From assembly GCA_964526195.1 (NCBI GenBank), contig CAZGIH010000020.1, forward strand, positions 12,803-76,802: a stretch of DNA of 64,000 bases, given 5' to 3'. The notes beneath the pieces are model-generated. The model was not told the DNA's origin and searched no databases. It was given only the letters and a program-made list of their open reading frames with translations. How positions within the stretch are numbered: the stretch's first letter is position 1; every line of letters begins with the position of its first letter. The DNA is from an uncultured Chromatiales bacterium (GTDB taxonomy: Bacteria > Pseudomonadota > Gammaproteobacteria > Poriferisulfidales > Poriferisulfidaceae). A program made the translations under genes and the position numbers. Below, piece by piece: positions 3,967 to 63,648 of the stretch.

Positions 3967-4053
3967 GGAGAGGTGGCAGAGTGGTCGAATGCGGCGGTCT
4001 TGAAAACCGTTGAACCGAAAGGTTCCGGGGGTTCGAATCCCTCCCTCTCCGCC
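3967..4053 (+). tRNA. tRNA-Ser (anticodon UGA)
   Basis: The acceptor stem GGAGAGG pairs with CCTCTCC, followed by discriminator G and CCA. The anticodon stem GCGGT pairs with ACCGT around the loop CTTGAAA (anticodon TGA). A long variable arm is characteristic of type II (Ser) tRNAs, and the T-loop is GTTCGAATC. Confidence 0.9.
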
Positions 4054-4078
4054 ACACGGACGTTGATGGACTACTCGC

Positions 4079-10300: not shown

Positions 10301-10591
10301 GAATTTCTAAGGCAGGCAGGTTTGGCCTGCGCGGGAATCAACAAGGTGGCGCAAGGCTCGCCTCACGTGGTCGACATGATCCAGGACGGGCAGATCGACC
10401 TGATCATCAACACGACTCAGGACAAGCAGGCCATCCGCGATTCGCTGACCATTCGGCGAGAAGCACTGCAGCATCAGGTCTGCTATACCACCACTTTGAC
10501 GGGTGCCAGCGCCTTGGTGCGCGTGTTAAAATGCGGCACACCTGAAGAGGTTTATCGACTACAGACTTTGCACAGCGAGCGTGTGCACTGA
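7382..10591 (+). CDS. carB: Carbamoyl-phosphate synthase large subunit
   Basis: 1069 aa with duplicated ATP-grasp halves and a C-terminal MGS-like domain; directly follows carA. Confidence 0.97.
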
Positions 10592-10633
10592 GCATGCGCG
10601 CAGGGTGCGTTTTCCAGTCCGATTGGGGGACCG

Positions 10634-11110
10634 ATGAGCAAAGTGCCAATGACCGTGCGGGGGGCCACCCTGCTGCGCGAAGAACTTGACCGTCTCAAGC
10701 GGGTAGAACGCCCGGCCGTGATCCAGGCGATCGCCGAGGCGCGTGCGCATGGAGACCTGCGCGAGAATTTCGAGTACAAGGCGGCGCGGGATCAGCAGGG
10801 ATTCGTGGAAGGGCGCATCAAGGAAATCGAATCCAAGTTGTCGCACGCACAGGTTATTGATGTCTCCGAACTTCAGATCAACGGCAAGGTAGTGTTCGGC
10901 ACCACGGTGGAACTGGTGGACATGGAATCCGGCGAGCACGTGTGCTACCAGATCGTCGGCGAGGACGAGGCGGATCTCGAGACGGATCGGATTTCGGTCC
11001 ACTCGCCCATTGCCCGGGCACTGATCGGTTGCCTGGAGGGCGACGAGGTTTCGGTTGAAACCCCTGGCGGGAAACGAGTGTTCGAGATCATGGCGGTGCG
11101 CGGCGAATAG
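10634..11110 (+). CDS. greA: Transcription elongation factor GreA
   Basis: 158 aa; conserved carAB-greA order; N-terminal coiled-coil and C-terminal FKBP-like domains. Confidence 0.94.
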
Positions 11111-20141: not shown

Positions 20142-20250
20142 CTTGATAGAGATTGTGGTGCCCTCTAATCCTACAGACATCGAATGGTTGCAGTAACGGA
20201 TAAAATTTTTTTATTTTCAATCATTTATAGAAACGAATCGTCTAAACATC

Positions 20251-20279
20251 AAAACACAGAGAAACTTAGGACTATAATG
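20251..20279 (+). promoter_or_regulatory. Candidate sigma70-like promoter for the islet gene
   Basis: Consensus -10 TATAAT at 20274-20279; weak -35 AAAACA at 17-nt spacing; AT-rich upstream region. Confidence 0.3.
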
Positions 20280-20329
20280 ACGACTCAAATGAAATTACAG
20301 ATTATTTGGATTTTTTAGGAGAAAAAATA

Positions 20330-20767
20330 ATGGGCGTACAGGCGATTGATGTGGCCGCCTACATTCTTAAAGAGCTTGGCACAATGCCCGCCATGAAGCT
20401 CCATAAGCTTGTCTATTATTCTCAAGCATGGTCTCTTGTGTGGGACGACAAGCCCATTTTCCATGACCGGATTGAGGCATGGGCAAATGGCCCAGTCATC
20501 CGGAATTTGTATAACAAACACAAAGGAAGGTTTCGTGTGGGCAGCATTAAGGGCGCCGAACGGACATTGCTGAACTCCGAACAGTGTGAAACCATAGATG
20601 CTGTTCTTGATTACTATGGTGACAAGTCTTCGCAATGGCTCAGTGATTTGACCCACATGGAGGCTCCGTGGCAAGAAGCACGAGCAAAAGCGGGTCTTGC
20701 CAGTGGACAACGCGGAAACGCATGTATCACTCATGCATCTATGGCTGAATACTACTCTGGTTTGTAA
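20330..20767 (+). CDS. Panacea-domain (DUF4065 / GepA-SocA-like) protein, antitoxin-type domain
   Basis: 145 aa from the ATG with AGGAGA 8 nt upstream; KLHKLVYYSQAWSLVWDDKPIFHDRIEAWANGPVIRNLYNKHK matches the DUF4065 core. About 40% GC against about 65% in the flanks. Ends at TAA 20765-20767. Confidence 0.7.
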   Translation: MGVQAIDVAAYILKELGTMPAMKLHKLVYYSQAWSLVWDDKPIFHDRIEAWANGPVIRNLYNKHKGRFRVGSIKGAERTLLNSEQCETIDAVLDYYGDKSSQWLSDLTHMEAPWQEARAKAGLASGQRGNACITHASMAEYYSGL

Positions 20768-20773
20768 AGCAAC

Positions 20774-21217
20774 TTGGGCAGGAAGCCAGCCAGAAAATTA
20801 TCCAAATCATCCGAACTCCCCCGTCCCACTAAAAAAGCAAAGAGTGGCGGGGATTCGGGCAAAGACGGTCATTTGTCCTGGAGGTTCAGTGCGTGTGACA
20901 AGAACGGTCCTTGGCCTTGGTTGGGGCTATCAGATCCCGAAACACATCAACGTGTAATAGAGAAATTATCAGGTTTTGAACAACTGAACCCAGAGCAAAT
21001 TAAAAAAACAGGGAGTCATCCTATAGAGGTTGGTAAACTTGTAAAAGACGCTAGAGACCGCCTTCAGCAACTTCATAAAGATGATGTGGATGAACTTTAT
21101 TCGTTCCGCATTTCTAGCAGAGAAAGAGTTTGGTGCATAAGGAAACAGAATGTTATGGAAGTCTTGTGGTGGGATCCAGAACACCATGTCTATCCAACAC
21201 AGCCTAGTAATACCTAA
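20774..21217 (+). CDS. 147-codon ORF in the same frame as the Panacea gene, separated from it by one TAA and two codons; no ATG or RBS; possible C-terminal portion or readthrough product
   Basis: A long open frame in AT-rich DNA. The only in-frame starts are TTG. The C-terminal stretch DELYSFRISSRERVWCIRKQNVMEVLWWDPEHHVY loosely resembles the final strands of RelE/ParE-fold toxins. Confidence 0.4.
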   Translation: MGRKPARKLSKSSELPRPTKKAKSGGDSGKDGHLSWRFSACDKNGPWPWLGLSDPETHQRVIEKLSGFEQLNPEQIKKTGSHPIEVGKLVKDARDRLQQLHKDDVDELYSFRISSRERVWCIRKQNVMEVLWWDPEHHVYPTQPSNT

Positions 21218-21337
21218 ACTACTTTTCCGACTTCAAAAAACTAGAATCATTCAGATGGCTTGGCTGGAAACCGCCTTTATGGGCATTTGCCGCTCGGCAT
21301 GCTCGGTCGCACTTGGCAAGTTATCCATACAATCCCT

Positions 21338-21347
21338 CGCCTGATGG
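21338..21347. repeat. Right copy of the 10-bp direct repeat CGCCTGATGG
   Basis: Exact match to 20124-20133; lies where high GC resumes, upstream of sppA. Confidence 0.5.
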
Positions 21348-21394
21348 CCGACCCCGAGAGTCCAGTACAATCGGCAATCTAGAGGAAAGCCGCC

Positions 21395-35111: not shown

Positions 35112-35968
35112 GTCGGGCCCTGGAAGTGGAGCAACAGCAGCCAGAACCCTGAACTGGCCAGCAATAACCCGGTTATCGTTCGGAATAGCCGCGCAGGGCT
35201 TGGAAGGGCCTTTTCGACGATCACGAAAAGCGCGATAGCCGCGACCCACAGCATGTTCATCATGCCGACGGCGAACAGGACCAGCATCAGCGCCCAGCAG
35301 CACCCGATGCAATACAGTCCGTGTTCAAAAGACATCTGCAGGGCGCCAGCCCGGCCGTCTTTCCAGCGGGCAAGCAGGAACTGCATGGGTGTTCGGCACA
35401 GGGTGAGGCAGACATCTTTCCATGGCGTCCACTGGTACAGGCCCGCCACGATCAGCAAAATGCCGCTGAACAACTGGCTTCGACTGTCCATCATGGGGTC
35501 GAGCAGCCCCCATTCGTGCAGGGGCCACTGCACGACCGAGATCACTGCGGAAAACGCGGCCCAAGAGGCGAGATAACCGACCAGAAAGATCATCCAGGGG
35601 ACGATTTTCAAGGTCTGCCGGCTCCGGTTCCGTTGTACGACCCGGTACATCCGCAGCATCGGCACGGCACTGGGCGTCATCATCGCGACCATCATGATCG
35701 ACCACATGGCGAACAGCATCCAGAAGTCGTATCCGCTCCAGCCGCCGACTCCGGCGGGCGGAGGCATCCACGCGATAGAGGGCCCGCCCCGCATCATGTC
35801 GCGCATCATCCATTCCATGTACAGCATCCAGCCCCACCCGCTGGCGGTGACGGCGATGACGGCGCCGATGAGGGTCCAGCGTTCAGCCGTCGGCAGGGGC
35901 GCGAATTCAGGAGTGGAGGCGGTGGCAGGCATGAGCGAAGCTCCCGCGGCCATTTTAACAGGTGGCAT
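35108..35968 (-). CDS. DUF2182-family polytopic membrane protein (predicted metal-binding)
   Basis: Multiple TM helices; HGLYCIGCCW motif; start codon ambiguous. Confidence 0.6.
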   Translation of the reverse strand: MPPVKMAAGASLMPATASTPEFAPLPTAERWTLIGAVIAVTASGWGWMLYMEWMMRDMMRGGPSIAWMPPPAGVGGWSGYDFWMLFAMWSIMMVAMMTPSAVPMLRMYRVVQRNRSRQTLKIVPWMIFLVGYLASWAAFSAVISVVQWPLHEWGLLDPMMDSRSQLFSGILLIVAGLYQWTPWKDVCLTLCRTPMQFLLARWKDGRAGALQMSFEHGLYCIGCCWALMLVLFAVGMMNMLWVAAIALFVIVEKALPSPARLFRTITGLLLASSGFWLLLLHFQGPT

Positions 35969-35997
35969 ATGTTGGAAGATGGGGATATAGTGGCCTA

Positions 35998-36963
35998 ATG
36001 AAAGCGGTAAATCGAGACAAGCCGGACCAATGGAAAGAAGACATTATCCGGTCAGTCGACATGTACAACAAGTGGTTTATCAGATTTGCGCCAAAAGCGT
36101 ATCGGGATGTTCGAGAGCAGACAGCCGAGGATGTCAAAAAGATGTTAAAAGCGACGGGCAATTTCAGAAAAATTGATGTAGCATTGCTCAAGGCATTTCC
36201 TGCTGTGTTGCCGACACTTCGGATGACCACTTCTCCACCGCTTGCAATAGATCGCTTGGTAGGACTCTCGGGCGCTTCAGCCAACCTTGTCAAAGTGATG
36301 GAAAAACAAGGCAAGCTTCCCTCTCGGATGTCACCGAGGGAATTGGATGCCAACCTTAGGAAAATCAGCAAAACGATCCAGAAAATGATTGATCCGGACA
36401 TTTTTGGCTGGTTGAAGAACGACAGAAAACCATCTCGACAGGACTTGTACCGGGCCGCGACAATTGTGGCTGACCGGTTATGCGGTGCTGTTGCAAACCC
36501 GATTATTCGCAATGCTCAGGAAAGAAGACAGCTTGCTACCATCGGGAAGTGGCTAAAGAATCGTGGCTATTTGAAGATTTCACCAGGAGAGGGAGCAAAA
36601 TATGATGAAATGCAGCCGGGAACATATTCGTTCCGACTGAATGTGCCAGCCGAGCAGGATCAAACTGGTAAATCAGTTAATATTCCTATGGATGTTGCCG
36701 TGATGCCTAAAAATGCGAAAGTGAGGAATTTGCCGCTTCTCATAGAGGCAAAATCTGCGGGTGACTTTACAAATGTCAACAAGCGCCGAAAGGAAGAAGC
36801 CACAAAAATGAGTCAATTGCGGCGAACCTATGGCAACAACGTGCGGTTTATTTTGTTTCTATGTGGATATTTCGACAGTGGCTATCTCGGCTATGAAGCA
36901 GCAGAAGGTATCGACTGGGTGTGGGAGCACCGTGTCGATGATCTCGAAAAATTTGGGATTTAG
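35998..36963 (+). CDS. Putative type II restriction endonuclease (PD-(D/E)xK), partner of the downstream methyltransferase
   Basis: IPMDVAVMPKNAKVRNLPLLIEAK gives a D...EAK nuclease motif. Its TAG stop abuts the methyltransferase ATG. About 47% GC against about 65% for the host. An alternative GTG start lies at 35962. Confidence 0.55.
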   Translation: MKAVNRDKPDQWKEDIIRSVDMYNKWFIRFAPKAYRDVREQTAEDVKKMLKATGNFRKIDVALLKAFPAVLPTLRMTTSPPLAIDRLVGLSGASANLVKVMEKQGKLPSRMSPRELDANLRKISKTIQKMIDPDIFGWLKNDRKPSRQDLYRAATIVADRLCGAVANPIIRNAQERRQLATIGKWLKNRGYLKISPGEGAKYDEMQPGTYSFRLNVPAEQDQTGKSVNIPMDVAVMPKNAKVRNLPLLIEAKSAGDFTNVNKRRKEEATKMSQLRRTYGNNVRFILFLCGYFDSGYLGYEAAEGIDWVWEHRVDDLEKFGI

Positions 36964-38550
36964 ATGGCTAGAAGTGAAATTGCGACGCTGGAGAAGCATC
37001 GTTTGATGCTTCAGGGGCAACTGGACTCAAAAAAGCATCAAGTTGAACGGAATCGGATGGGGCAATTCGCCACGCCTCCAGAATTGGCAGTGGACATTCT
37101 CCGTTATGCTGAAACCCATAGCGGGATCAACGAAAGAGTCCGTTTCCTTGACCCAAGCTTGGGAACCGGGTCGTTTTATTCAGCTTTGCTCAAAGTGTTT
37201 CCACAAAACCGCATTGATTCTGCTGTAGGCTACGAAATCGATTCCCATTATGGAATTCCTGCGGCAAATTTGTGGGAAAAGACAGGCTTGGATGTCCGTT
37301 TGAGTGATTTTACGCGGGCTGAAGCGCCACCAGATTCTGAAAAGTTTAACCTGCTTGTTTGTAACCCACCTTACGTTCGGCACCATCATATTGACAGTGG
37401 AGAAAAACAGCGCCTGAAGGCCTGTTTGCAGAAAGCGTGCAGCATGCGGCTCAGTGGATTGGCCGGATTGTACTGTTATTTTCTTGGGTTAAGCCATAAG
37501 TGGCTGGCCGAGGGAGGGCTTGCGGGCTGGTTGGTGCCAAGCGAATTTATGGATGTGAATTATGGTGCTGCAGTAAGGAATTACCTGCTAAATAACGTGA
37601 CGCTGCTGCATCTGCATCGATTTGATCCAGACGATGTGCAGTTTGAAGACGCCTTGGTGTCTTCGGTTGTGGTCTGGTTCCGCAAAGCGAAACCGCCGCT
37701 AGAACACCACGTCAGGTTCACATACGGTGGATCGCTTGGCAGCCCAAGGCTGGAACGTTTGGTGCCCGCCGAGACGCTGTGTCGTAGCTCTAAGTGGACA
37801 GGCTATCCGGCAAAAGAGGACGGTGATAAAGCAAATGTGCCAGTTTTGGGTGATTTCTTCAGCATTAAGCGGGGACTGGTGACCGGGGGCAACCGGTATT
37901 TCATCTTGACACTTGAGGAAATCAAGTACCGTGGATTACCTCGAGAAGCATTTCGGCCCATATTGCCGAGCCCGCGTTATTTGCGAGAGAACGAAGTAGT
38001 AGCCGACGGGGATGGAAACCCGGTGCTGGGCCGTCGTTTATTCTTGCTTGATTGCCGACTGGGAGAGGCGCAGATAAGGAAGAAATATCCAGCCTTGTGG
38101 AAATATCTTGAAGAAGGGGAAGCACTGGGTATAGCCAAACGCTACCTCTGTCGGCATCGGACACCTTGGTATACACAGGAAGAACGGCCGCCAGCGCCAT
38201 TCGTATGCACTTACCTTGGAAGAAAGGGAACAAAAAACGGGCGGCCGTTTCGCTTCATACTGAACCACTCTCGGGCGACTGCCGCAAATGTCTACCTCAT
38301 GCTCTACCCTAAAGGACCGATTGCCCGAGCCTTAGAGGAAGATCCGGACTTGAAAAAGAAACTCTGGAAGTTTCTCAATGCAATTCGTCCCCAGACAATG
38401 CTGGATGAGGGACGAGTCTATGGTGGGGGGTTGCATAAGCTTGAGCCAAGAGAATTGAGTAATGTACCGGTTGCGGAATTTGCGGAACTATTGCCGGAAC
38501 CAGCACGATTGCAGTCCGAAAAGCAAGGAGAATTATTTGTGGCAGTTTGA
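36964..38550 (+). CDS. Gamma-class N6-adenine DNA methyltransferase (Eco57I/TaqI-like) with C-terminal target-recognition domain
   Basis: 528 aa. Motif I FLDPSLGTGSF precedes motif IV LLVCNPPYVRHH, the gamma-class order. The low-GC composition is shared with the upstream nuclease. Confidence 0.85.
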   Translation: MARSEIATLEKHRLMLQGQLDSKKHQVERNRMGQFATPPELAVDILRYAETHSGINERVRFLDPSLGTGSFYSALLKVFPQNRIDSAVGYEIDSHYGIPAANLWEKTGLDVRLSDFTRAEAPPDSEKFNLLVCNPPYVRHHHIDSGEKQRLKACLQKACSMRLSGLAGLYCYFLGLSHKWLAEGGLAGWLVPSEFMDVNYGAAVRNYLLNNVTLLHLHRFDPDDVQFEDALVSSVVVWFRKAKPPLEHHVRFTYGGSLGSPRLERLVPAETLCRSSKWTGYPAKEDGDKANVPVLGDFFSIKRGLVTGGNRYFILTLEEIKYRGLPREAFRPILPSPRYLRENEVVADGDGNPVLGRRLFLLDCRLGEAQIRKKYPALWKYLEEGEALGIAKRYLCRHRTPWYTQEERPPAPFVCTYLGRKGTKNGRPFRFILNHSRATAANVYLMLYPKGPIARALEEDPDLKKKLWKFLNAIRPQTMLDEGRVYGGGLHKLEPRELSNVPVAEFAELLPEPARLQSEKQGELFVAV

Positions 38551-51645: not shown

Positions 51646-54249
51646 TCAATCATCATCCGCGGGAGAATCCAGTTTCTGCAATTCATAAATCAGGTCCAGA
51701 GCCTCCTTCGGCGACAGCTGGTCGGGCTTCACCTGTCGGAGACGTTCCAGGGCGGCCGGGATGGATGGAGGATCGGAAGGTGGCACGAACAGGTCTTTTT
51801 GCGGATTGCTGCGCGCCCAACGCTGAGTGCTGTCATCCTCGAGTTCCAGCAGGTATGCCTGGGCCCGTTCCAGCACCGGCGCAGGAATGCCCGCGAGACG
51901 TGCGACCTGCAGGCCGTAGCTTTGGCTGGCAGGTCCTTCCTTGACGGCGTGCAGGAAGACGATTTTCTGGCCATGCATCGTGGCGTCCAGGTGAAGGTTG
52001 ACGATCCCGGGATGGATTTCGGCCAGCTGGGTCAGCTCGAAGTAGTGGGTGGAGAAAAGGGTGAATGCCCGATTTCGGGTGGCCAGGTATTCGGCGCAGC
52101 CCAGTGCCAGTGCCATCCCGTCGAAAGTGCTGGTGCCGCGACCGATCTCGTCCATCAGCACCAGACTGTATTCGGAGGCGTGGTGCAGGATGTTGGCGGC
52201 TTCCGTCATCTCGACCATGAACGTGGAACGACCCGAAGTCAGGTCGTCGGAGGCCCCGATTCGGGTGAAGATGCGGTCGATGGGGCCAATCCTGGCCTGC
52301 TTGGCCGGCACGTGGCTGCCGATGCAGGCCATCAGCACGATCAGTGCGGTCTGCCTCATATAGGTGGATTTGCCGCCCATGTTCGGACCGGTGACGAGGA
52401 GCAGGCGGCGTTGCTCGGAGAGCAGCGTGTCGTTCGGCACGAATGGTTCGTTCCAGGTCAGCTCGATTACCGGGTGGCGACCGGCTTCGATCTCGACGCC
52501 GGGTTCGTCGACCAGTTCGGGGCAGCAGTAGTGGTGTGCCTTGGCCTGCTCGGCGAAGCTGCAGAGCACGTCCAGTTCGGACAGCGCATCTGCACATCGC
52601 TTGAAGTGGTTCAGGTGTGGCGTCAGGCTTTCCAAGAGATCTTGGTAGACCTGTTTTTCCCGCTCCAGCGCCCGGCTGCGCGCGCTCAGAACGCGGTCCT
52701 CGAATTCCTTCAGCTCCGATGTCAGGTAACGCTCGTAGTTCTTGAGCGTCTGCCGCCGCCGGTAGTGATCGGGCACCCGCGCGGCTTGGCTGCGCGGGAC
52801 CTCGATGTAGTAGCCGTGAACCCGGTTGTAGGCGACTTTGAGCTGGGCGATGCCGGTACTCTCCCGTTCGGTTGCTTCCATCTCCAAAAGAAAATCGTCG
52901 GCTCCGCGCGACAGTTCGCGTAGCTCATCCAGCTCGGGATCGAATCCTGCCGCAATGGCGCCGCCCTCGCGAATGGTCGGAGGGGGATTTTCCGCGAGCG
53001 CTGAAGCCAGATGTGCAGCCAGTTCCGGGTCCGATTGCAGATGGGCACGATAGGAGTCGAATTCTGCCGCGTCGATATCCTCCAGCAGGCGGCGCAGGTC
53101 TGGCAGGCGCTGCAGGGTTTGGGCCAGGCCGCACAAGTCCCGAGGGGAAGCGGTATGCAGGGCAAGGCGGGCGATGACGCGCTCGATGTCGGAGACTTTC
53201 CTCAACTGTTCGCGAATCGGGGCGCGGTGCGTGTTGTCCAACAGGTGAGAAACGATTTGGTGGCGTGTCGCCAGTGTTTCCCGGTCGCGAAGGGGAGATT
53301 GGATCCATCGACCGAGACAACGGTGGCCCATGGCCGTGACGGTTTTGTCCAATACACCCAGCAAGCTGTGGCGGGAATCGCCGGAGATAGTCTGCTCCAG
53401 CTCGAGATTGCGTCGGCTGGTGGCATCTAGGTAGATATGAGTATCGCGCCGTTCCCTTTGCAGGCTCGTAATGTGTGGCAGGGCCGCCCGTTGTGTCTCT
53501 TGGGCGTAGTAGAGCAGGGCTCCGGCGGCTCCGGTGGCGGAGGGCGCGTCTTGGCAGTCGAAGGCAGACAGGTCATAAACCCCGAGTTGCTGGCACAAGA
53601 GCCGGGAAGCGGTTTCGGCATCAAAATGCCAGTCCGAAAGAGGCTGCCAGTGCGTGTCTTCCCAGTCCGGAGGGGTGTTCGATTCCGGGTACAGGATTTC
53701 CGCTGGACGGAGACGTTCCAGTTCCGCGTACAGGTCTTCGATGGATGGGAGATCCATCACGTTGAAGCGGCCCGAGCTCAGGTTCAGGCTGGCCAGCCCG
53801 ATCGGATCCCCCGGCCACAGTGCAAGCAGCAGGGCGTCGCGCCCGGCGTCCAGCAGTTCATCCTCGATCAGGGTTCCGGGTGTGACGATGCGCGAAATCT
53901 GGCGTTCCATCGGCCCCCGGCCGGGCGGGCTGTCACCGACCTGCTCGCAAACCACCGCGGATTCTCCGAGGTCGACGAGTTTTGCGAGATAGGAATCAAG
54001 CGAAACCACCGGGATGCCCGCCATCGGGATAGGCTGGCCCTTGGAGCGTCCGCGCTCGGTCAGTACGATATCCAGCAATTCGGAGCCGCGCTTGGCGTCC
54101 TCGAAGAACAACTCGTAGAAGTCTCCCATTCTGTAGAGCAGCAGGTGCTGGGGGTATTGCGCCTTGAACTCAAGGTACTGGCGCATGCTGGGAGTGTGCT
54201 GCTGCTGTGGCGAGGGTGACGTCAACAGTGGAGCCGGTTGCAGTGCCAT
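51646..54249 (-). CDS. mutS: DNA mismatch repair protein MutS
   Basis: 867 aa; [28 protein letters not shown]-terminus; Walker [10 protein letters not shown]. Confidence 0.97.
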
Positions 54250-54349
54250 CCGGCTATTTTGTCAAATTTCTAAAATCCCCTGAAACGGCTGCCGGAAGGA
54301 GCCCGCGACGGAGCAGATGGTTGCAGGGAACTCGGGTCGAAAAAGCCCT

Positions 54350-55384
54350 TTACTCAGTTCCCGAATGCTTGGGTTTACGGGCCAAGAAGAAAAACGCCGG
54401 GGTAAAGAGACCGGATTCGCCTCCCGCGACCAGTGCGTCCGCTCCCCTGTTCAGCATTGTGCTGACCATGGTGGAGCCCTTCGGAATGATCCGCAGCGTC
54501 TCCCCGACTCTTAAGGTCAAATTGGTCAGGGCGCGCCCGATGGGCGTGCGAGGAATGCTCGCGAGACTGAGGTCGCGACCCTGCAGGGCGCGATACCAGG
54601 GCATACCCGGATCCGCTTCAGGGGCGAGGTCGCGGGCTTCCAAAAACTCGAACCCGGCCGCACTCAATGCGGGACCGATTTCAGACGTGACGGCGATATC
54701 CGGTAGCCCGTTCCCTTTCTCGATGTCTTTCTTGATCCGAAGGTGCTCGGCATTCTCCGGATCGAAGTCCTCGGTGAGACACCACTCGTAACCCGCGAAG
54801 CAGGCTCCCGGGCACAGGATGCGGAAGACCTCCCGGAACGCTGCGGTCTTGTCCGGCGCATGGGGCATGGACTCGATCGCGATGGCGGCGTCGTAGGAGT
54901 TGTCGTCCTCGGGAATCTGCATGAAGTCGCCGTGGATGAAGCGGCACAACGACTGGATGTCTTGGCTTTGTGCTTCGGCGCGCCTGATCTGGTAGGCGTT
55001 GTTGTTAAGCCCGACGAAACTGGCCCCGGAGTAACGGGCCAGCGTGCGCATTGGTCCGCCGATCCCGCAACCCAAGTCGATAACCTGCATCCCGGGTTTC
55101 AGGGACAGTTGGTCGGCTAGGAAATGCTCGTGCCTGAGCAGCGACTCCTTGAAGCTTTCGCCGCGGAGCCGGGGCGCGAAGTGAAAGGACTGGCCCCAGC
55201 CAAATTCGTAGAAATCGGTCGCTAGGTCGTAGTAGTGATTGACGAGTGTCTGATAGTCCTCTTTCCTGTTCTCCAGGTCGTCGTCGTGGAGCCCGGTGTA
55301 TTGATCGACCGCTTGGGTTACTTCATCCGGAGTGAGGTCCGAAAAAGAACGGGAACTCGATTGCTTGGTGGAAGTGCTGCTCAT
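54350..55384 (-). CDS. Sterol C-24 methyltransferase (ERG6/SMT family), SAM-dependent
   Basis: Start at the internal Met (MSSTSTK...). YYDLATDFYEFGWGQSFHF matches the SMT region-I hallmark (YEYGWG..FHF). SAM motif VIDLGCGIGGP. About 344 aa. Confidence 0.85.
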   Translation of the reverse strand: MSSTSTKQSSSRSFSDLTPDEVTQAVDQYTGLHDDDLENRKEDYQTLVNHYYDLATDFYEFGWGQSFHFAPRLRGESFKESLLRHEHFLADQLSLKPGMQVIDLGCGIGGPMRTLARYSGASFVGLNNNAYQIRRAEAQSQDIQSLCRFIHGDFMQIPEDDNSYDAAIAIESMPHAPDKTAAFREVFRILCPGACFAGYEWCLTEDFDPENAEHLRIKKDIEKGNGLPDIAVTSEIGPALSAAGFEFLEARDLAPEADPGMPWYRALQGRDLSLASIPRTPIGRALTNLTLRVGETLRIIPKGSTMVSTMLNRGADALVAGGESGLFTPAFFFLARKPKHSGTE

Positions 55385-55413
55385 TCGATTATCCTGCCAG
55401 TTCGCGTTCTTCT

Positions 55414-58400
55414 TCAAGAAGGAGCAGGCGCGTTGGGCTGCTCTTCCAAAGCCGCTGCCGCCAAAGGCACCGCGTCGCTCGCAATTGCGCCGGTGGCAAG
55501 GGAATCGGCGGTTGCCAGTTCCAGCCGGGCCCGGCGCCGCTGCTCGTAGAGGCCGAGGGCGCGCAGGGGGAAATACTGCCGATACAGGACGTAGTCCAGC
55601 AGGGCCGTACGGAAAAAGACTCCGGCCATGTCTTGCTTGGGCCATGCGCCATCCGCATCCTGGGTGTTGAGCAGGAACCGGACGCCCTGCGAGATCGCGG
55701 CCCAGTTGGGGTCCTCCGCCTCAAGGAGCGCAATCAATGCCCATGCGGTCTGGATGACCTGGCTTTCATCGTGCGCAATGTACTGGCCGGTGAAGCAACC
55801 GCTGTGGTGCTCACCCCATCCCCCGTCTCCGCGCTGACGGTCCAGCAACCACCGGCAGGCCAAGCGTAGCGCCGTATCACCCGGACGGGCTCCGGCCGCA
55901 AGCAGGCCCCTGATCCCGAAGGAAGTGCCGTAGATGAACTGAACTCCCCATACGCCGCGCCACGACCCATCGCTTGCCTGGGTTCGGCGAAGCCAGGCGC
56001 CGGCTCGCGACATGGCATCCGTCACTGCCTGGTCCGTGATGTCTGAAAAGTGCTTCTTGCAGGCGGCGAATGCCGCGAGGCAAGAAGCGGTGCACTCGAC
56101 ATAGGAATGTTCAGTCATCGACTCGCCGAACATTTCGGCTGGATTCAGCCATTCGAGCCCGATTACGGAACGCTGTGCTTCATAGCTGCCAAAGCCGCCA
56201 TCGCGGTTCTGACCTCGCAGCATGAACTGGATCGCATCCTTGAGCATGGCCGTGTTCGTCGTCCCGCGGTGGACGGCGATAATCCCGAGCACCGCTTCCG
56301 CGGTGCAGTCGGTGACTGGCCAGCCATGCCACTGTCCGGCAAAGCACCAGCCACCCTTGGGGTCGTTTCGAAAAGCCTCACGAAATCCTTCGAAACTGGT
56401 CTTGATTTGTTGCGTTTCCAGGAAATCGGCTCCACGCTGGAGGGAATTTTGAACTTCAGGGGCCAGATCGAGTCCGGACATTGTGTCCAATGCCTGCAGG
56501 GCGAAGCCGGTATCCCACGAAATGCTTCTCGCCCCGGTGACTCGTGCCCCGTATTCCTCGTCTTCCCAGATCCAGTCGTCCGACTTCGCGAGTGCCTGGC
56601 GACTGTCGGGATCGTTTGGGTCGCGCAGCCATAAGGCCAAGATGTTGAGGAGCCCGCTGACCGGGGAGATACTCGTGTGATTGGTCGTTCGAAGTTCCCA
56701 TTGGATGCGCTCGGTGATCGCGTCCATGCATCGAGCACGCAGGTATTGACTATGGAATCGTTCAAACAATTGCGAAAACCCGTACCCGATCCGGAGCCAT
56801 ACACTGGGCCGCGCATGGAGGTCGGCGCTTCGCAGGCGATTGCGGCCCGCGGAAAAGCCGACATTGGCAAAGCCCTCGGGGTACAGTTCTTCTCGCAGTG
56901 ACGCGATCAAAGGCGTGACGGGTGCCTGAAACCGATGTGAGTAGACGGCCGCCATCGCCATGTAGATGAGCCGGGTATGGCAATACCAGTTGGAAGGGTG
57001 CAGCGGAATCCAACGCGGCAGACTCCACAGTTCTGGCAGGATGGCGTTGATTCCGCGCCAGTCGTATAGATTGAGGAGCGCCAGCCAGAATTTCCCCCAG
57101 CTCGGAATGCCGAGAACTCCTTCGGTTTGCAGGAATTCCTGGGCAGGTTTAAGCAGCGGGTCATCCCGCTCGATGCCGAGCAGTCTTGCCGCGACGTAAA
57201 CCAGCGTGGTAACAAACAAGTTGGGGGGCGGGTACTCGTGCAGGCCCCATGCGCCTCCTTCTAGGCGAGTCTGTTCGAAAGACCGCAGCACGCGTCGGCG
57301 CCGATCGGGATCGAGCGACTGCCCCATGACGTAGTGCAGCAGTACGTACTGCGCGGTGAGCATGGGGCACCAGACCATCTCGCCTTCCCAGGCGCCATCC
57401 CCACCCTGGAGACTCAGCAGGCGCTCGCTCGCGCTCTTCAACGCCGGACCAGCATCAGGCGATTCGACCGTCCATGGGCGGGCAGGTTGAGAGTCGTTGG
57501 TCTTCGACGGGATGGAGACCAGGAATGTGCGGGACCAGGTGTCCCGAATTTGCTCGTCCTCTCCTTCGCCCGTGCTTCTCACCCGATGCAACATCCGGGC
57601 ACCCCGCAGCAGCCATTTGATTCGGCCCGAGAGTGAATTAAAGGTGTCTCGGGCACGTCGCCAGGCAAGTTTGTCGAGAGATCGCGGCATTTCTCCGGCA
57701 ACCGCCCGGGCCATCGTCGTAAAAAATGCAGAACTCAGGTGAATGACCGATGTGTCTTCGCAGGCGAGTAAACGCATGGTCCGGTCGCGCATCGTAGAAC
57801 TTGCCCGCCAGCCTCGGTAGGCTGCATGCCGGAGAGCCGCCACCTCGGTCCGATGATCAGCAAAGACCTCGTAGAGTCCTATGGCAAGGAATTCCGGGGC
57901 CCGGATCGCCCGGAAGCGCTTCTTGGTGAAGTCGCGAAAGTCCCCGTTTTCGGCGAGTGCAAGTGCATCACCGAAACCAAGGGTGATTCCGACCGCCGAC
58001 ATGGGGTGGTAGTGCCCGGCCGCATCGCCGATCAGTACTCGATGCGGGCTCCCGTAGCTAACGCGCGGCCTTAGTTTATTGCTGGCAGTGCGAAACTGCC
58101 CCGCCCGCAGCGCTTCAACAAATGCGGGCCTGACTGATTCCGGCAACCAACCGGTGTACGAGTCCAACAGGAACCCAATCCGATCCCGGGGTATCCAGCG
58201 ATCCGCCGGGACATCAACGACGATGCGCACGCCGCGCTCTCCGAGGCGGTACATGAGGATCGGCCCGGGTCCACCTCCCAACACGTACCCATAACCCTCC
58301 AACGGCAACGTCACGTCGTCGACCAGGACTCCCACCATCCACGAGCAAGTTTTGTGGTTCGTCGGCAAGCCCAGCGATCGACGCACGACCGAACCCCGGC

Positions 58401-58875
58401 CATCGGCGCCGACGATCCGCGTGGTCGCGACGGACTCATCGGTCCCGTTTCGAGTAAAAGTGATTCGTCCGTCTACAACCTCACGGACTTGTGCATTGAA
58501 AATGAAATCAATGCTCGATTCGTTCTCGATCGCTTCGTGCAGATGCGAGACGAGTGCCGAATGCTCACAGGCCAATCCGTGAGCACCGTCCGGATAGGGA
58601 AGTATGATCGGTTCCGAGTCGTCTTCCGGGTACACCACGAACCCATTGCCTGCACCGATGGGAGGCTGCGTGTCGATCCCGACCCCGATCTCGCGCAGGA
58701 TCTGCACGGCGGGGGGGTGCAGCCATTCTCCCGCCAGTCGCTTGGAAGCTTCGGGGCTCGCTTCGAGCAGGACAACCCGGGCACCTTTTCGCGCGTGGGC
58801 GAGCGCACACACACTGCCGACTGGTCCCCCGCCGACAATCGCGACGTCGTAATGCCGGGAGGGGGGGATGCTCAC
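55414..58875 (-). CDS. Single ORF encoding squalene monooxygenase (N-terminal) fused in frame to oxidosqualene cyclase (C-terminal)
   Basis: N-terminus: FAD Rossmann DVAIVGGGPVGS and the squalene-epoxidase motif GDAAGHYHPMSAVGITLGFGD. C-terminus: terpene-cyclase QW repeats (RDGGFGSY, GDGGWGEH) and the oxidosqualene-cyclase catalytic motif VTDCTAEA. No stop separates the two domains. Probable GTG start overlaps the CYP51 stop (GTGA). Confidence 0.85.
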   Translation of the reverse strand: MSIPPSRHYDVAIVGGGPVGSVCALAHARKGARVVLLEASPEASKRLAGEWLHPPAVQILREIGVGIDTQPPIGAGNGFVVYPEDDSEPIILPYPDGAHGLACEHSALVSHLHEAIENESSIDFIFNAQVREVVDGRITFTRNGTDESVATTRIVGADGRGSVVRRSLGLPTNHKTCSWMVGVLVDDVTLPLEGYGYVLGGGPGPILMYRLGERGVRIVVDVPADRWIPRDRIGFLLDSYTGWLPESVRPAFVEALRAGQFRTASNKLRPRVSYGSPHRVLIGDAAGHYHPMSAVGITLGFGDALALAENGDFRDFTKKRFRAIRAPEFLAIGLYEVFADHRTEVAALRHAAYRGWRASSTMRDRTMRLLACEDTSVIHLSSAFFTTMARAVAGEMPRSLDKLAWRRARDTFNSLSGRIKWLLRGARMLHRVRSTGEGEDEQIRDTWSRTFLVSIPSKTNDSQPARPWTVESPDAGPALKSASERLLSLQGGDGAWEGEMVWCPMLTAQYVLLHYVMGQSLDPDRRRRVLRSFEQTRLEGGAWGLHEYPPPNLFVTTLVYVAARLLGIERDDPLLKPAQEFLQTEGVLGIPSWGKFWLALLNLYDWRGINAILPELWSLPRWIPLHPSNWYCHTRLIYMAMAAVYSHRFQAPVTPLIASLREELYPEGFANVGFSAGRNRLRSADLHARPSVWLRIGYGFSQLFERFHSQYLRARCMDAITERIQWELRTTNHTSISPVSGLLNILALWLRDPNDPDSRQALAKSDDWIWEDEEYGARVTGARSISWDTGFALQALDTMSGLDLAPEVQNSLQRGADFLETQQIKTSFEGFREAFRNDPKGGWCFAGQWHGWPVTDCTAEAVLGIIAVHRGTTNTAMLKDAIQFMLRGQNRDGGFGSYEAQRSVIGLEWLNPAEMFGESMTEHSYVECTASCLAAFAACKKHFSDITDQAVTDAMSRAGAWLRRTQASDGSWRGVWGVQFIYGTSFGIRGLLAAGARPGDTALRLACRWLLDRQRGDGGWGEHHSGCFTGQYIAHDESQVIQTAWALIALLEAEDPNWAAISQGVRFLLNTQDADGAWPKQDMAGVFFRTALLDYVLYRQYFPLRALGLYEQRRRARLELATADSLATGAIASDAVPLAAAALEEQPNAPAPS

Positions 58876-60274: not shown

Positions 60275-61381
60275 TCAATAGACGAACGGCAGCATCGCGA
60301 AACGCACTCGCTTCGTGTACCGCTCCCAGAGTTCGCCGTACTTGGCGCGGCAGCGGCGATCGTCGCGTCTTGAGCGATGCGACAACAGCCCCGCCAACCA
60401 CGCGGGCAACAGGTAAGGCACCCAGGATGCGAATCCGGTGGTCAGGGCGAACGAAAGGTAGATGCAGATCTCGCCGGTATAGTTGAGATGCCGCCCGATT
60501 CCCCAAAATCCGGAGACCAGCAGGTGCCCGTCCAGGGACTCGGCGGGTTTCCCCCAGATCGTGGCGTGAGAGTCACGCTTGAAACGGTGCTTCTGCCCGT
60601 TGGCGCCGCGGAAGACCCAGAAGCCGAAGACGAACAGCAGGGTGATTGCGACGGCAGCGACGGGGGGCAGGGGATCGGTTGCGTGAACCAGCCACCAGCC
60701 GGCGAGGCAATAGAAAAACGGGACCAGTACATAGTCTCCCCAAACCAGCATCCACCCGAAGCGTTCGCTGACGATGTCCCAGGTGTGGACCATTCCGTAT
60801 TCGAAGTGGAAGTAGTTGAGGACGTACAGGAAAGTGAAGGTCTGGTAAAGCATCATCGCCAAGGTCAACTCGCCGTAGGTTTCGTACTGCACGGCGGCGA
60901 ACGAGACGTTGAACAACGCGAGGCCGATGAGGGAAGGGCGGTAGCTGAAAAACTTCAAGTCCACCCCGAACCAGGTCGGATGGCCTTCCACGCCATAGAA
61001 GAAACCTTCCAATCCCTTCGGGGAATCGCCCTGGGTCCGGGTGCCTTGGTAGTACAGCAAGGCGGAAAAAGCAAACGCGAATATGTTCGCTACCACGAAC
61101 AGGGCGAGAAAGTGGGTATACAGCACCGAAAGAGAGAACCAACCGGAGACTTGGGCAAGTCCTCCCACGATCATGGTCAGCAGGAACAGGGCGAGGCCGT
61201 TGCTCCTGTAGATCCTTGATTTTCCATTGTAATCCGGTCCCGTAACCCGGCGTCCGGGCAACAGCATCGAACCCAGGAACAGGAAGCCGAAGAATGCCAG
61301 CATCATGGCTGCCGCGTCGAGCAGGGTGCTGCCGGACAGCGCAGTCAGCGAGAAGGGCAGGTCAGGCATAAGCGTTGCCAT
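60275..61381 (-). CDS. ERG4/ERG24-family sterol reductase (C-14 or C-24(28) reductase type)
   Basis: 368 aa polytopic membrane protein; family signature LLVSGFWGIGRHLNYTGE. Confidence 0.8.
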   Translation of the reverse strand: MATLMPDLPFSLTALSGSTLLDAAAMMLAFFGFLFLGSMLLPGRRVTGPDYNGKSRIYRSNGLALFLLTMIVGGLAQVSGWFSLSVLYTHFLALFVVANIFAFAFSALLYYQGTRTQGDSPKGLEGFFYGVEGHPTWFGVDLKFFSYRPSLIGLALFNVSFAAVQYETYGELTLAMMLYQTFTFLYVLNYFHFEYGMVHTWDIVSERFGWMLVWGDYVLVPFFYCLAGWWLVHATDPLPPVAAVAITLLFVFGFWVFRGANGQKHRFKRDSHATIWGKPAESLDGHLLVSGFWGIGRHLNYTGEICIYLSFALTTGFASWVPYLLPAWLAGLLSHRSRRDDRRCRAKYGELWERYTKRVRFAMLPFVY

Positions 61382-62459
61382 TCTCCGCTTTGCGTGTCAG
61401 GTATTCGCGCCACTTGCGCACGGTCACGTCCTGGAAAGCCTCCACCACGGGATTGAACTCGACGGTCGGGGCGTCCCAATGTTTCTCGTAACCCTCCTGT
61501 TCTCCTTCGAGTGCGTATTGATCCTGAGAAAGCAACGGGCCGATGAGGATGCGGTTCGAGATCTTTAGAACGAAGGTCATGGCGAAACGGGGAATGTGCA
61601 CCGGCAGCAAGGGTATCTTCAGCGACTTGAAGTAGAACAAAAAGAAGGTCCGGGTTGTCCGCTCGTCGATGGGCAGCACGAAAAGCCAGTGTTTGATCCA
61701 GTCATCGGTGTTCGACCACTGGTAAGGGTATTGGTAGCAGAGATCCATGTGATTGGTGTCGAGCCGTTTGTGGTCGACGAACAGCCCGGAGATACGCCCG
61801 CGTCCGACCTGCGTGTCGTAGGAGAGGTGCACATCATCACCGATAGTCTCGCAGCGGGTGAGGGCAGCGCCGACGAAAGGCCGGTATTGACGGTGCAGGT
61901 GGGCATGAGAGAAGTCGCTCACGTTGTCGATCACCATCGAGTGGTGGGCCAACCAGGTGAAAGTGAGCGGGACGCAGGCCCATCGGTCGGGTCCCTCGAG
62001 TTCAGGAATGTCCGGGATCTGCCGTGACTCCGCTTTCTCCGGATCCCCAGGGAACAACCAGACCAGGCCGTATCGGACCTTCACGGGATAGGATCGAATC
62101 GAGACATTCTGACAACTTTCTCCGAGGTGCTCGCGAGGCCCCCCGGCACGTTGCCCCCCTCCGTCGTATTGCCAGCCATGGTAGGCGCAGACGAGCCGGC
62201 AGCCCTCAACATGGCCGAGAGAAAGCTTGAGTTGGCGATGGGCGCAGCGATCCTCGACCGCATGGAACGAACCATCCTTTGCTCGGAACAATGCGATGGC
62301 GTGTTTCCAGAAAACAACCTCGGTCACGGTTCCCGGCTTGACGCGGCGTACTTCTTCGACCGCGTACCAATAATCCGGGTCCATGCCCGCGGCGCGCGCT
62401 TTCTGTCGCAAATTGCTGGCTTCATCGAAGCCAGGAGGCGGGCTTGTCATTGAGTCCAT
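61362..62459 (-). CDS. Rieske [2Fe-2S] non-heme iron oxygenase, SdmA-like (sterol C-4 demethylation type)
   Basis: 365 aa; Rieske box CAHRQLKLS...CAYHGW; C-terminal catalytic domain; paired with a 3beta-HSD-like gene. Confidence 0.7.
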   Translation of the reverse strand: MDSMTSPPPGFDEASNLRQKARAAGMDPDYWYAVEEVRRVKPGTVTEVVFWKHAIALFRAKDGSFHAVEDRCAHRQLKLSLGHVEGCRLVCAYHGWQYDGGGQRAGGPREHLGESCQNVSIRSYPVKVRYGLVWLFPGDPEKAESRQIPDIPELEGPDRWACVPLTFTWLAHHSMVIDNVSDFSHAHLHRQYRPFVGAALTRCETIGDDVHLSYDTQVGRGRISGLFVDHKRLDTNHMDLCYQYPYQWSNTDDWIKHWLFVLPIDERTTRTFFLFYFKSLKIPLLPVHIPRFAMTFVLKISNRILIGPLLSQDQYALEGEQEGYEKHWDAPTVEFNPVVEAFQDVTVRKWREYLTRKAENGNAYA

Positions 62460-62460
62460 T

Positions 62461-63648
62461 TCAGCCTCCGTCTGAAGTGATGGGTGTGCCTTGATCCGGC
62501 ATGAGTTCTTCTACTTGTCCTGTGCCGTCCATGCACGGGGGTTTCGCGTCCGGGTTCGTGATCGCCTTGCGCTGGTGGTAGTGAAAGGCGTAGGCTTCGT
62601 GAACCGCGGCGCGGATGCTGGTCGGACGATAACCGAGATCTTCTTTCGCCTTGCTGTTGTTGGCGTGGCGGCACTTTTGCAGCAGGCGAATGGCGCCGGG
62701 AGTGAAACGCTGAGGGAAACTTGGATGAAACCGGCTCAGGTAAAAACTGGCCACTTCTGAGAAAGCAAGCATTGCACGGACCGGAATCCGTCGGTTGGGT
62801 CGCGGGATGCCGGAGACTTCCTCGTACAGGTCGATGATGTCGGAGATGGTTTTGTATTCGGAACTGAAGATGTATTTCTCGCCTGTGCGCCCGCGGCCCA
62901 TGCACAACCGGTGTCCTTCAACAATGTCCCGTGCCGCGACGAACTCGAAGCCGCCATCGACGTAGGCATGGAGCTTGCCGTTTGTGTAATCGCACAAGGT
63001 TCTACCCAATCGTGAAGGGAAGAAATCGCTGCCCCCCACAACCGCGCAACACGTTGCGACGATGACATCCTGTCCGGCCGCCGCGGCGCGCCAGCACACC
63101 TGTTCGACGAGCGTCTTGCTGCGCTCGTAGGGCATCGTGCGTTCCATGGGATAGAACAGCATCGTCTCGTCGCTGGGGGCGGAGGGGTCATCCAGGTTGT
63201 ACCCGACCGCGCTGAAAGAGCCCGTCACGACCACCCGGCCGGCTTCCGTCTCCCGTGCCGCCTGCAGCATGTTGCGGGTGCCGAGAACGTTGCACTCGTA
63301 TATTTCCCGACGATGGGCGTGGTTTCCTTCGATGGTTGAAACCTTGGCCGCGCAGTGATAGACGCCTTGGCAGCCCTCGACCGCACGCCTGACGGAATTC
63401 AAGTCCCGCAGGTCGCCGAACACGCGTTCGACCTCAAGGCCTTCCAGCGCCTCGTTGTTCTCTTCGTGTCTTAGCAGCACCCGGACCCGGGTGCCTTCGT
63501 TGAGTAGCCGACGCACGAGATTGGCACCCACGTGCCCGGCCGCGCCGGTGACGAAAACGGGTGCAGCCGATGAATTGTCGGGTGTGCTCGATCCTGAAGT
63601 CATCTTGTGCCCTGATTCCGAAACTTTTTCATCCATGTTTGACGGCAT
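62461..63648 (-). CDS. NAD(P)-dependent 3beta-hydroxysteroid dehydrogenase/decarboxylase-family enzyme, SdmB/ERG26-like
   Basis: Extended-SDR motifs VFVTGAAGHVGANL and Y-E-R-S-K; an alternative start at Met16 lies at 63603. Confidence 0.72.
   Translation of the reverse strand: MPSNMDEKVSESGHKMTSGSSTPDNSSAAPVFVTGAAGHVGANLVRRLLNEGTRVRVLLRHEENNEALEGLEVERVFGDLRDLNSVRRAVEGCQGVYHCAAKVSTIEGNHAHRREIYECNVLGTRNMLQAARETEAGRVVVTGSFSAVGYNLDDPSAPSDETMLFYPMERTMPYERSKTLVEQVCWRAAAAGQDVIVATCCAVVGGSDFFPSRLGRTLCDYTNGKLHAYVDGGFEFVAARDIVEGHRLCMGRGRTGEKYIFSSEYKTISDIIDLYEEVSGIPRPNRRIPVRAMLAFSEVASFYLSRFHPSFPQRFTPGAIRLLQKCRHANNSKAKEDLGYRPTSIRAAVHEAYAFHYHQRKAITNPDAKPPCMDGTGQVEELMPDQGTPITSDGG

Follow-up and report, generated by a model that had tools for sequence, protein, structure and literature searches.

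The stretch of DNA analysed here (hereafter, the window) comprises 64,000 nucleotides of contig CAZGIH010000020.1 from the genome assembly GCA_964526195.1 of an uncultured Chromatiales bacterium. Towards its end, on the minus strand, lie six co-directional genes, separated by gaps of 29 nt at most or overlapping each other. The last of them, located at 54350..55384, encodes a protein of the sterol methyltransferase (SMT) family, and mutS follows 100 nt downstream. The proposal of an earlier note on this DNA, which placed an ERG6-type SMT at the distal end of a sterol operon, thus agrees with what is found at the locus. Judging from the sequence comparisons below, we consider that the gene codes for a functional S-adenosylmethionine (SAM)-dependent sterol C-24 methyltransferase (ERG6/SMT1 type, EC 2.1.1.41) of a sponge symbiont from the Candidatus Porisulfidus lineage, with a probability of about 0.85.

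Relatives were sought by scanning one genome per bacterial species with a narrow query taken from the window SMT; this returned 168 species-level genomes, and the best 80 of these 168 were used for locus comparisons. The closest loci include Candidatus Porisulfidus sp. TsSOB (MRSX01000003.1; locus L001 in our set) and a gammaproteobacterial metagenome-assembled genome (MAG), L004. These comparisons define the extent of the gene. An ATG-initiated open reading frame (ORF) of 431 aa does occupy 54350..55645 on the minus strand, as the earlier note stated, with an 87-codon N-terminal extension sharing 232 nt with the upstream cyclase gene, whose TGA stop codon is at 55414..55416. However, the ATG at 55384 (protein start MSSTSTK), located 29 nt beyond the cyclase stop and preceded at a distance of 8 nt by an AGGA ribosome-binding site (RBS; 55392..55395), keeps its position together with an upstream GGAG/AGGA in seven related loci (eight loci, counting the window, for the start codon). 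The longest SMT ORF of TsSOB begins just 11 codons upstream of this conserved ATG, so the 87-codon extension is not conserved, and homologs are 338–358 aa long. The real gene is therefore 54350..55384, coding for 344 aa followed by a TAA stop, in line with the ERG6-like length that the earlier note had preferred. The extension (55385..55645) is spurious, being a read through the 29-nt spacer and, out of frame, through the 3' end of the cyclase gene.

A scan of 54000–55700 for promoters and terminators gave a single promoter-like match (55417..55388, minus strand) and no terminator between the SMT gene and mutS. This sigma-70-like match, TTGAAG-18-GATAAT (9/12), extends over the cyclase stop codon and is located shortly before the SMT RBS; the strings TTGAAGAA and AATAAT of this region are kept in loci of the Porisulfidus lineage. 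The match might represent an internal promoter, or simply a stop and RBS sequence that has been conserved.

The encoded protein belongs to the SMT family. Its C-terminal part (aa 279–338; 54371..54550) matches the Pfam domain Sterol_MT_C (PF08498) with 75.8 bits, against a gathering cut-off of 21.7 (E = 2.9e-21), and Methyltransf_11 is found as well (61.1 bits, E = 1.7e-16). Alignment with yeast ERG6 gave 41.5% identity over 337 aligned residues, and BLASTP against ERG6 gave E = 4e-90. The ERG6 sequence used here matched 32 of the 32 numbered residues of Brown and Welander (2025), and it also reproduced a published identity value of 41.57% (see below). Residues at conserved positions are numbered hereafter as in yeast ERG6, following Brown and Welander (2025).

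The SMT-specific Region I motif noticed earlier upstream of the SAM fold is there: the sterol-binding aromatic stretch YYDLATDFYEFGWGQSFHF (aa 51–69; 55178..55234, minus strand), with Tyr at yeast position 81 and Phe at 83, is followed by the Region II SAM motif VIDLGCGIGGP (DxGxGxxGP; aa 101–111; 55052..55084, minus strand). The Region I consensus Y..T..Y.[YF]GWGxxFHF is intact, with equivalents of Y74, T78, Y81, G84, W85, G86, F89, H90 and F91 all in place. All four Regions (I–IV) can be recognized, Region III by E195 and Region IV by G217, and all 25 of the 25 residues listed for functional SMTs by Brown and Welander (2025) are kept in the window protein: GWGxxFHF, DxGxGxxGP, Y74, T78, G147, Q154, D189, E195, G217, G268, W286, G333, L341, G352, F357 and P359. 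The same residues are conserved in 80–82 of the 82 orthologs compared.

More specific resources added little. No NCBIfam model reached its curated cut-off, all matches being generic methyltransferase models (the cyclopropane-fatty-acid (CFA) synthase model scored 39 bits against a cut-off of 400). The PDB search retrieved no true SMT; entry 6f5z is named so, but matches the Rossmann core only (E = 2e-9). We consider the missing specific matches uninformative, since the PDB holds no true SMT and the NCBIfam matches are all generic; according to Brown and Welander (2025), no SMT structure has been reported. An AlphaFold2 model built on a 27-sequence alignment (70–97% identity) had a mean pLDDT (predicted local distance difference test) of 43, too poor for fold comparison.

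The most telling comparison is with an enzyme that has already been assayed. Over 16–18 kb, window DNA is 92–93% identical to both TsSOB and L004, while the SMT protein shares 96% identity with that of TsSOB and 97% with the protein P0001. Placement of the window in the Candidatus Porisulfidus lineage follows from this DNA identity to TsSOB and L004; look-ups for identical sequences in the protein collection, made with both the 344-aa and the 431-aa product, returned no match. We identify the TsSOB SMT with the enzyme called 'Theonella swinhoei associated Chromatiales sp. 1 of 2' (IMG gene 2690455922) by Brown et al. (2023, Nat Commun 14:1859), because the order of its neighbours matches and the published identity to ERG6 is reproduced. 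Supplementary Data 1 of that paper gives the order as SMT 2690455922, ERG1 and ERG7 under 2690455923, ERG11, ERG24, sdmA and sdmB, and our alignment of the TsSOB SMT with ERG6 (138/332, or 41.57%) yields exactly the value printed there. A figure legend in the Brown preprint describes the T. swinhoei cluster as 'containing a functional sterol methyltransferase'. Brown and Welander (2025) place the '1 of 2' enzyme in the active block of their supplementary alignment, after the label '(1)', and its '2 of 2' counterpart under 'No activity'. Among eight active sponge-symbiont SMTs, only three also made 24-ethyl sterols (Brown et al., 2023). The TsSOB SMT most probably performs a single methylation. 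The window and TsSOB enzymes agree in length, in start and in Y81, F83, I192 and N249, and both operons run sdmB, sdmA, ERG24, CYP51, fused ERG1-ERG7 and SMT, with mutS beyond. Earlier publications thus cover the enzyme, the cluster and its occurrence in sponge symbionts, and the window represents a new species-level copy; its novelty is well below what the earlier note assumed.

Several positions in the protein bear on specificity: Y81, F83, I192, A218, C219 and N249. Compared with ERG6, to which it is 40–42% identical over the full length, the window SMT has a shorter N-terminus (344 versus 383 aa in total) and differs at positions 83 (F for Y), 192 (I for Y), 218 (A for G), 219 (C for T) and 249 (N for D). 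Its bacterial origin and its place in an operon also set it apart from ERG6, and its substrate is likely a lanosterol-derived 4-methyl sterol, whereas ERG6 acts on zymosterol.

The comparison with propylating SMTs, which make 24-isopropyl (C30) sterols and are found in an A. aerophoba symbiont and in Chlamydiae (Brown et al., 2023; Brown and Welander, 2025), is also instructive. These enzymes fall into the same orthogroup as the window SMT, which has in common with the mutagenesis-tested residue set F83, A152, N318 and F362. Yet of the residues associated with propylation, Phe at 81 and/or 83 is present through F83 alone, position 81 being Tyr, and Gly at 249 is replaced by Asn (Asn225 of the window protein; 54710..54712, minus strand); propylating SMTs have G249 and F81. 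Phe83 does not discriminate, as it occurs in 81 of the 82 orthologs; position 249 is D in 45 of them, N in 33, T in three and G in one. According to mutagenesis results, propylation requires G249, which is not sufficient by itself, and the formation of C28 and C29 sterols persisted in G249N mutants (Brown and Welander, 2025). Because of N249, Y81 and the place of the 96% identical ortholog among single-methylating enzymes, we would expect single methylation to be the main activity of the window SMT and no 24-isopropyl sterols to be formed.

The reported propylation signature F81/F83/G249 was seen elsewhere in our set: locus L016, whose label is Nitrospira sp. bin75, has it in its cluster-linked SMT (10046..11023), and this SMT and that of the window are 74% identical. 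Extra SMT paralogs in L020, L021, L026 and L066 (40–54% identity) have G249 too. Paralogs of the M81/I249 type occur in L007, L008, L014–L016 and L027; the one in L008 matches 'Nitrospira sp., coral reef 2 of 2', listed as inactive.

The genes upstream of the SMT, all on the minus strand, fit a sterol pathway. The first operon gene in the window (62461..63648) codes for an SdmB-like short-chain dehydrogenase/reductase of the 3-beta-hydroxysteroid dehydrogenase kind, which would serve in C-4 demethylation; it matches Pfam Epimerase and 3Beta_HSD, and NCBIfam NF052578 with 298.7 bits, below the 600-bit cut-off. It is followed by a gene for an SdmA-like Rieske oxygenase of the same putative process (61362..62459; Pfam Rieske and VanA_C), which scores 405.9 bits with NF052579 (4beta-methylsterol monooxygenase), again below the equivalog cut-off of 600 bits. 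Next come an ERG4/ERG24-family sterol reductase (60275..61381; Pfam ERG4_ERG24, 238.9 bits), most likely a C-14 reductase, and a CYP51-like sterol 14-alpha-demethylase P450 (58872..60260; Pfam p450, 196 bits). The P450 has 462 aa from the ATG at 60260, as called for its ortholog in L081, and its longest ORF extends to 60506. The TsSOB orthologs of the P450 and the reductase are listed as ERG11 and ERG24 homologs in Supplementary Data 1 of Brown et al. (2023).

Between the P450 and SMT genes lies one for a fused squalene monooxygenase-oxidosqualene cyclase (SQMO-OSC; 55414..58875, with the ORF open to 58944). It contains Pfam SE, FAD_binding_3 and SQHop_cyclase_N/C, and the NCBIfam model osq_cycl scores 719.9 bits. 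The fusion ORF encodes 1176 aa; a start at the GTG at 58875 gives 1153 aa, which is also the length of the L081 gene call. The cyclase part (57474..55489) contains the motif WPVTDCTAE (aa 878 of the fusion ORF), in which Val precedes the catalytic Asp of DCTAE by two residues. Valine at this 'V453' position correlates fully with lanosterol, not cycloartenol, in bacteria (Wei et al., 2016), and lanosterol rather than cycloartenol is the most likely product predicted here. The position called '449' holds His, as in cycloartenol synthases. The SQMO-OSC fusion forms an unbroken ORF in 63 of 64 related loci from many phyla; Supplementary Data 1 of Brown et al. (2023) gives one gene id for ERG1 and ERG7, and in the papers examined we did not find the fusion itself discussed.

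Taken together, such a gene set suggests the following scenario. The genes would presumably be expressed as an operon, whose fused SQMO-OSC would epoxidise and cyclise squalene, most likely to lanosterol; CYP51 and the ERG24-like reductase would remove the C-14 methyl, and SdmA and SdmB the C-4 methyl group or groups. The SMT would then move a methyl from SAM onto the delta-24(25) double bond of the sterol side chain, and a hydride shift with proton loss would produce 24-methylene or 24-methyl-delta-25 sterols (C28 side chain). In the window, tblastn revealed no second SMT, no DHCR24-like gene and no desaturase-like gene. Since no DHCR24-like reductase adjoins the SMT gene, the side chain would probably keep its double bond, barring a reductase gene in another part of the genome.

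We conclude that the SMT gene is maintained, because its ratio of nonsynonymous to synonymous substitution rates (dN/dS, Nei-Gojobori) is 0.06–0.11, with 0.07 against TsSOB; the other cluster genes have 0.05–0.18.

Several other readings of this gene have to be weighed. The SMT might be bifunctional, methylating its 24-methylene product a second time to give 24-ethyl or 24-ethylidene (C29) sterols, as plant SMT1/SMT2-like enzymes and some bacterial SMTs do; we consider this unlikely. Asn249 is compatible with such an activity, given the C29 sterols of G249N mutants of a propylating SMT, and Phe83 favours sequential methylation (Brown and Welander, 2025). In addition, the upper part of the 2025 supplementary alignment, that of the multi-methylating enzymes, includes the 77% identical ortholog from a coral-reef Nitrospira (L008, gene 2682229274), which likewise has N249 and stands beside the ethylating Sandaracinus 1 of 2. 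However, the 96% identical ortholog stands after the '(1)' label, and two of the only three 24-ethyl-forming enzymes among the eight active sponge-symbiont SMTs came from A. aerophoba (Brown et al., 2023). Moreover, the window protein has Ile192, whereas the Nitrospira ortholog and 47 of the 82 orthologs have Phe, which enables a second methylation in the yeast Y192F variant. It is still less probable, in our opinion, that the gene encodes an inactive member of the family, or one acting at C-4, C-26, C-28 or on another substrate, with no C-24 methylation in the organism. A sizeable minority of the bacterial SMT homologs tested were indeed inactive, some of them without an obvious sequence defect; the window alone has R191C beside Region IV; and C-4-methylating enzymes of the SMT family are known in the literature, to judge by the titles of the papers. 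Against this stand strong purifying selection (dN/dS of 0.07), the intact set of functional-SMT residues and the side-chain activity reported for the 96% identical ortholog, while the inactive '2 of 2' paralogs are 40–54% identical and carry M81/I249-type changes absent from the window SMT.

Two further explanations question the nature of the gene itself, and we give either of them hardly any weight. A non-sterol class I methyltransferase (like CFA synthase, UbiE, MitM or sarcosine methyltransferase) that merely adjoins sterol genes could account for the matches to the generic models CMAS (43 bits) and Ubie_methyltran (33 bits), for MitM and other small-molecule methyltransferases being the best PDB matches, and for the NCBIfam result. 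Those CMAS and Ubie matches are confined to the Rossmann core, though, while Region I and Sterol_MT_C are strongly present and 40–42% identity to ERG6 extends over the full length; this explanation is effectively refuted by the Sterol_MT_C score, the ERG6 alignment and the ERG6 BLASTP result. As SMTs are a usual feature of eukaryotes, and sponges have SMT genes too, one might also think of DNA from the host sponge or another eukaryote mis-binned into a bacterial contig. Nevertheless, the gene contains no introns and is preceded by a Shine-Dalgarno site; a bacterial-type SQMO-OSC gene ends 29 nt ahead of it, and mutS follows after 100 nt; the surrounding 64 kb consists of bacterial housekeeping genes, the same locus is found on chromosome-scale records of 1.6–5.7 Mb, and an orthologous contig was classed as prokaryotic by Brown et al. 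(2023). Such a bacterial context refutes mis-binning.

We are aware that a number of points weigh against the conclusion that the gene encodes a functional, singly methylating sterol C-24 methyltransferase. Eleven SMT homologs proved inactive on both desmosterol and 24-methylenecholesterol, four of them without any deviation at conserved residues (Brown and Welander, 2025); since such homologs exist, sequence alone does not guarantee activity. The published assays used desmosterol and 24-methylenecholesterol, not the 4-methyl or 8(14)-ene intermediates of bacteria. The methylation count of the TsSOB ortholog was taken from a machine-read table, in which group labels are apparently shifted by one row. 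About 13 of the 344 residues differ between the window and TsSOB enzymes, among them the window-only Cys191 (TGC, 54812..54814, minus strand), which corresponds to Lys215 of yeast and lies two residues before Gly217 of Region IV. Of 81 orthologs, 78 have Arg at this place and none has Cys; Cys191 may reflect true polymorphism, altered function or an error in the sequence. Pfam scans of the larger window ORFs revealed no squalene synthase, and the single promoter-like match mentioned above is uninformative on expression.

Clusters of this kind are not limited to one lineage. The cassette of SdmB, SdmA, ERG24, CYP51 and SQMO-OSC together with an SMT was found by tblastn with the window proteins in about 60 of the best 80 loci, at 60–80% amino acid identity. 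All of the best 80 of the 168 relatives are MAGs. The earlier note's remark that bacterial SMTs are rare therefore stands for cultured bacteria and fails for MAGs of sponge symbionts, in view of the 168 species-level genomes with a relative. The loci bear the labels Gammaproteobacteria and Alphaproteobacteria, Binatia, Nitrospirales, Thermodesulfobacteriota, Terriglobia, Vicinamibacteraceae, Bryobacterales, Gemmatimonadetes, Longimicrobiales, Candidatus Palauibacter, Rhodothermales, Nitrospinaceae and Candidatus Poriferihabitaceae; Terriglobia, Vicinamibacteraceae and Bryobacterales we take to be Acidobacteriota. Some pairs of loci with differing phylum labels share 86–95% nucleotide identity in the cluster genes.

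The spread of the cassette among these best 80 loci is the pattern described by Kelly et al. (2022, Microbiome 10:164), whose clusters of steroid genes (CSGs) were present in 115 of the 537 MAGs from sponges, spanned 10 phyla, and were reported to show purifying selection and horizontal transfer. Like the window operon, the CSGs have an ERG24-CYP51-LSS core, preceded by 'DFR' (SdmB) and a 'hypothetical' gene (SdmA), with the SMT at the 3' end. In the CSGs, however, the SMT gene is on the opposite strand, whereas in the window and throughout the Porisulfidus lineage it is co-directional, as in the published TsSOB cluster. Within our set, the SMT gene is adjacent to the cyclase in 55 loci; in 43 of these it is convergent (on the opposite strand) and in 12 co-directional, including the whole Porisulfidus lineage.

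The SMT gene has a history partly independent of the rest of the cluster. In bins of 100 nt, the window and L004 are 90–97% identical, except for a sharply bounded block at about 54250–55500 (about 9900..11140 in L004), where identity drops to 61–87%. This block covers the SMT gene and the tail of the cyclase gene; its dS is 0.99, against 0.16–0.37 in the neighbours, while dN/dS is unchanged at 0.10. Fast evolution of the SMT protein was considered as the cause of this fall of 20 percentage points in identity to L004 and rejected, because dS rises as much as dN and the edges of the block are sharp. The window SMT allele groups with those of L001 and L002, as its other genes do, and the L004 allele with those of L005 and L006; thus, L004 and not the window is the recombinant, and an SMT allele replacement in the L004 lineage fits the data better. 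The same pattern emerges between L003 and L006, with OSC 97% and SMT 84.8% identical. Across 133 close pairs, SMT identity usually falls 3–15 percentage points below that of OSC, CYP51 and SdmA, and occasionally exceeds it.

The space between the SMT gene and mutS varies as well. TsSOB has two opposite-strand genes there (11048..14012 in L001), and so do L002, L003 and L081, while the window has just 100 nt (54250..54349) and L004 likewise lacks them. One of the inserted genes encodes a DHCR24-like FAD_binding_4 protein (about 472–511 aa), the other a membrane protein of the FA_desaturase family (about 471–484 aa). L005 and L006 instead carry a nucleotidyltransferase/HEPN-like gene pair at this place.

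It is tempting to suppose that the position after the cyclase gene is an exchangeable slot, in which recombination swaps SMT alleles, along with accessory side-chain genes for the DHCR24-like reductase and the FA_desaturase-like protein, among co-resident sponge symbionts and independently of the remaining cassette, thereby tuning the 24-alkyl sterols made by each. The window would then be a stripped version ending at 24-methylene sterols, with a single-methylating allele, no adjacent reductase or desaturase, and its unique R191C. We find this idea rather doubtful at the current point, and offer it as a speculation. If true, symbiont sterols could feed a host pool of unusual 24-alkyl sterols, such as, perhaps, the 4-methylene-24-alkyl-8(14)-ene sterols of Theonella.

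As to the broader meaning, 24-alkyl steranes, and especially 24-isopropylcholestane, are taken as fossil evidence for eukaryotes and for the earliest sponges, and bacterial SMTs within full sterol operons of sponge symbionts weaken the inference of eukaryotes or sponges from such steranes. The window adds one species-level Candidatus Porisulfidus lineage, in which the operon is part of the core chromosome and under purifying selection. This supports the view that sterol alkylation by symbionts is a stable trait and not an assembly artefact. The overall picture is left unchanged, as the ortholog has been assayed, the spread of the cluster has been published, and Gly249, needed for the isopropyl side chain, is absent. 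The new leads are modest: the independent exchange of SMT genes, the presence or absence of reductase and desaturase genes, and R191C.

Finally, we would like to comment on the rest of the window. The cluster is bounded on its 3' side by mutS (51646..54249, minus strand; TIGR01070, 1081 bits), and the remaining DNA is ordinary chromosome with dnaK, dnaJ, dapB, carAB, nusA, infB, truB, hisGD, the bc1 complex genes and purMN, together with a murA/aroA-type gene of the 5-enolpyruvylshikimate-3-phosphate (EPSP)-synthase family. An islet of low GC content (20150..21350; 0.41–0.50 versus about 0.61) separates truB from a peptidase S49 gene. Within it are an ORF for a SocA/Panacea-domain antitoxin (20306..20767, plus strand) and an unannotated ORF of 147 aa (20774..21217, plus strand), the two forming a candidate toxin-antitoxin pair. 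The lowest GC content of the window (0.486) was recorded at 35962..38550 (plus strand), where a gene for a XamI-family restriction endonuclease (373 bits) is followed by one for a protein with an Eco57I-type methylase domain; this pair is probably an acquired restriction-modification system. At 3967..5638, a tRNA-Ser(TGA) gene is directly followed by an ORF of 519 aa with TraG/VirD4 coupling-protein domains, possibly left over from an integrated conjugative element.

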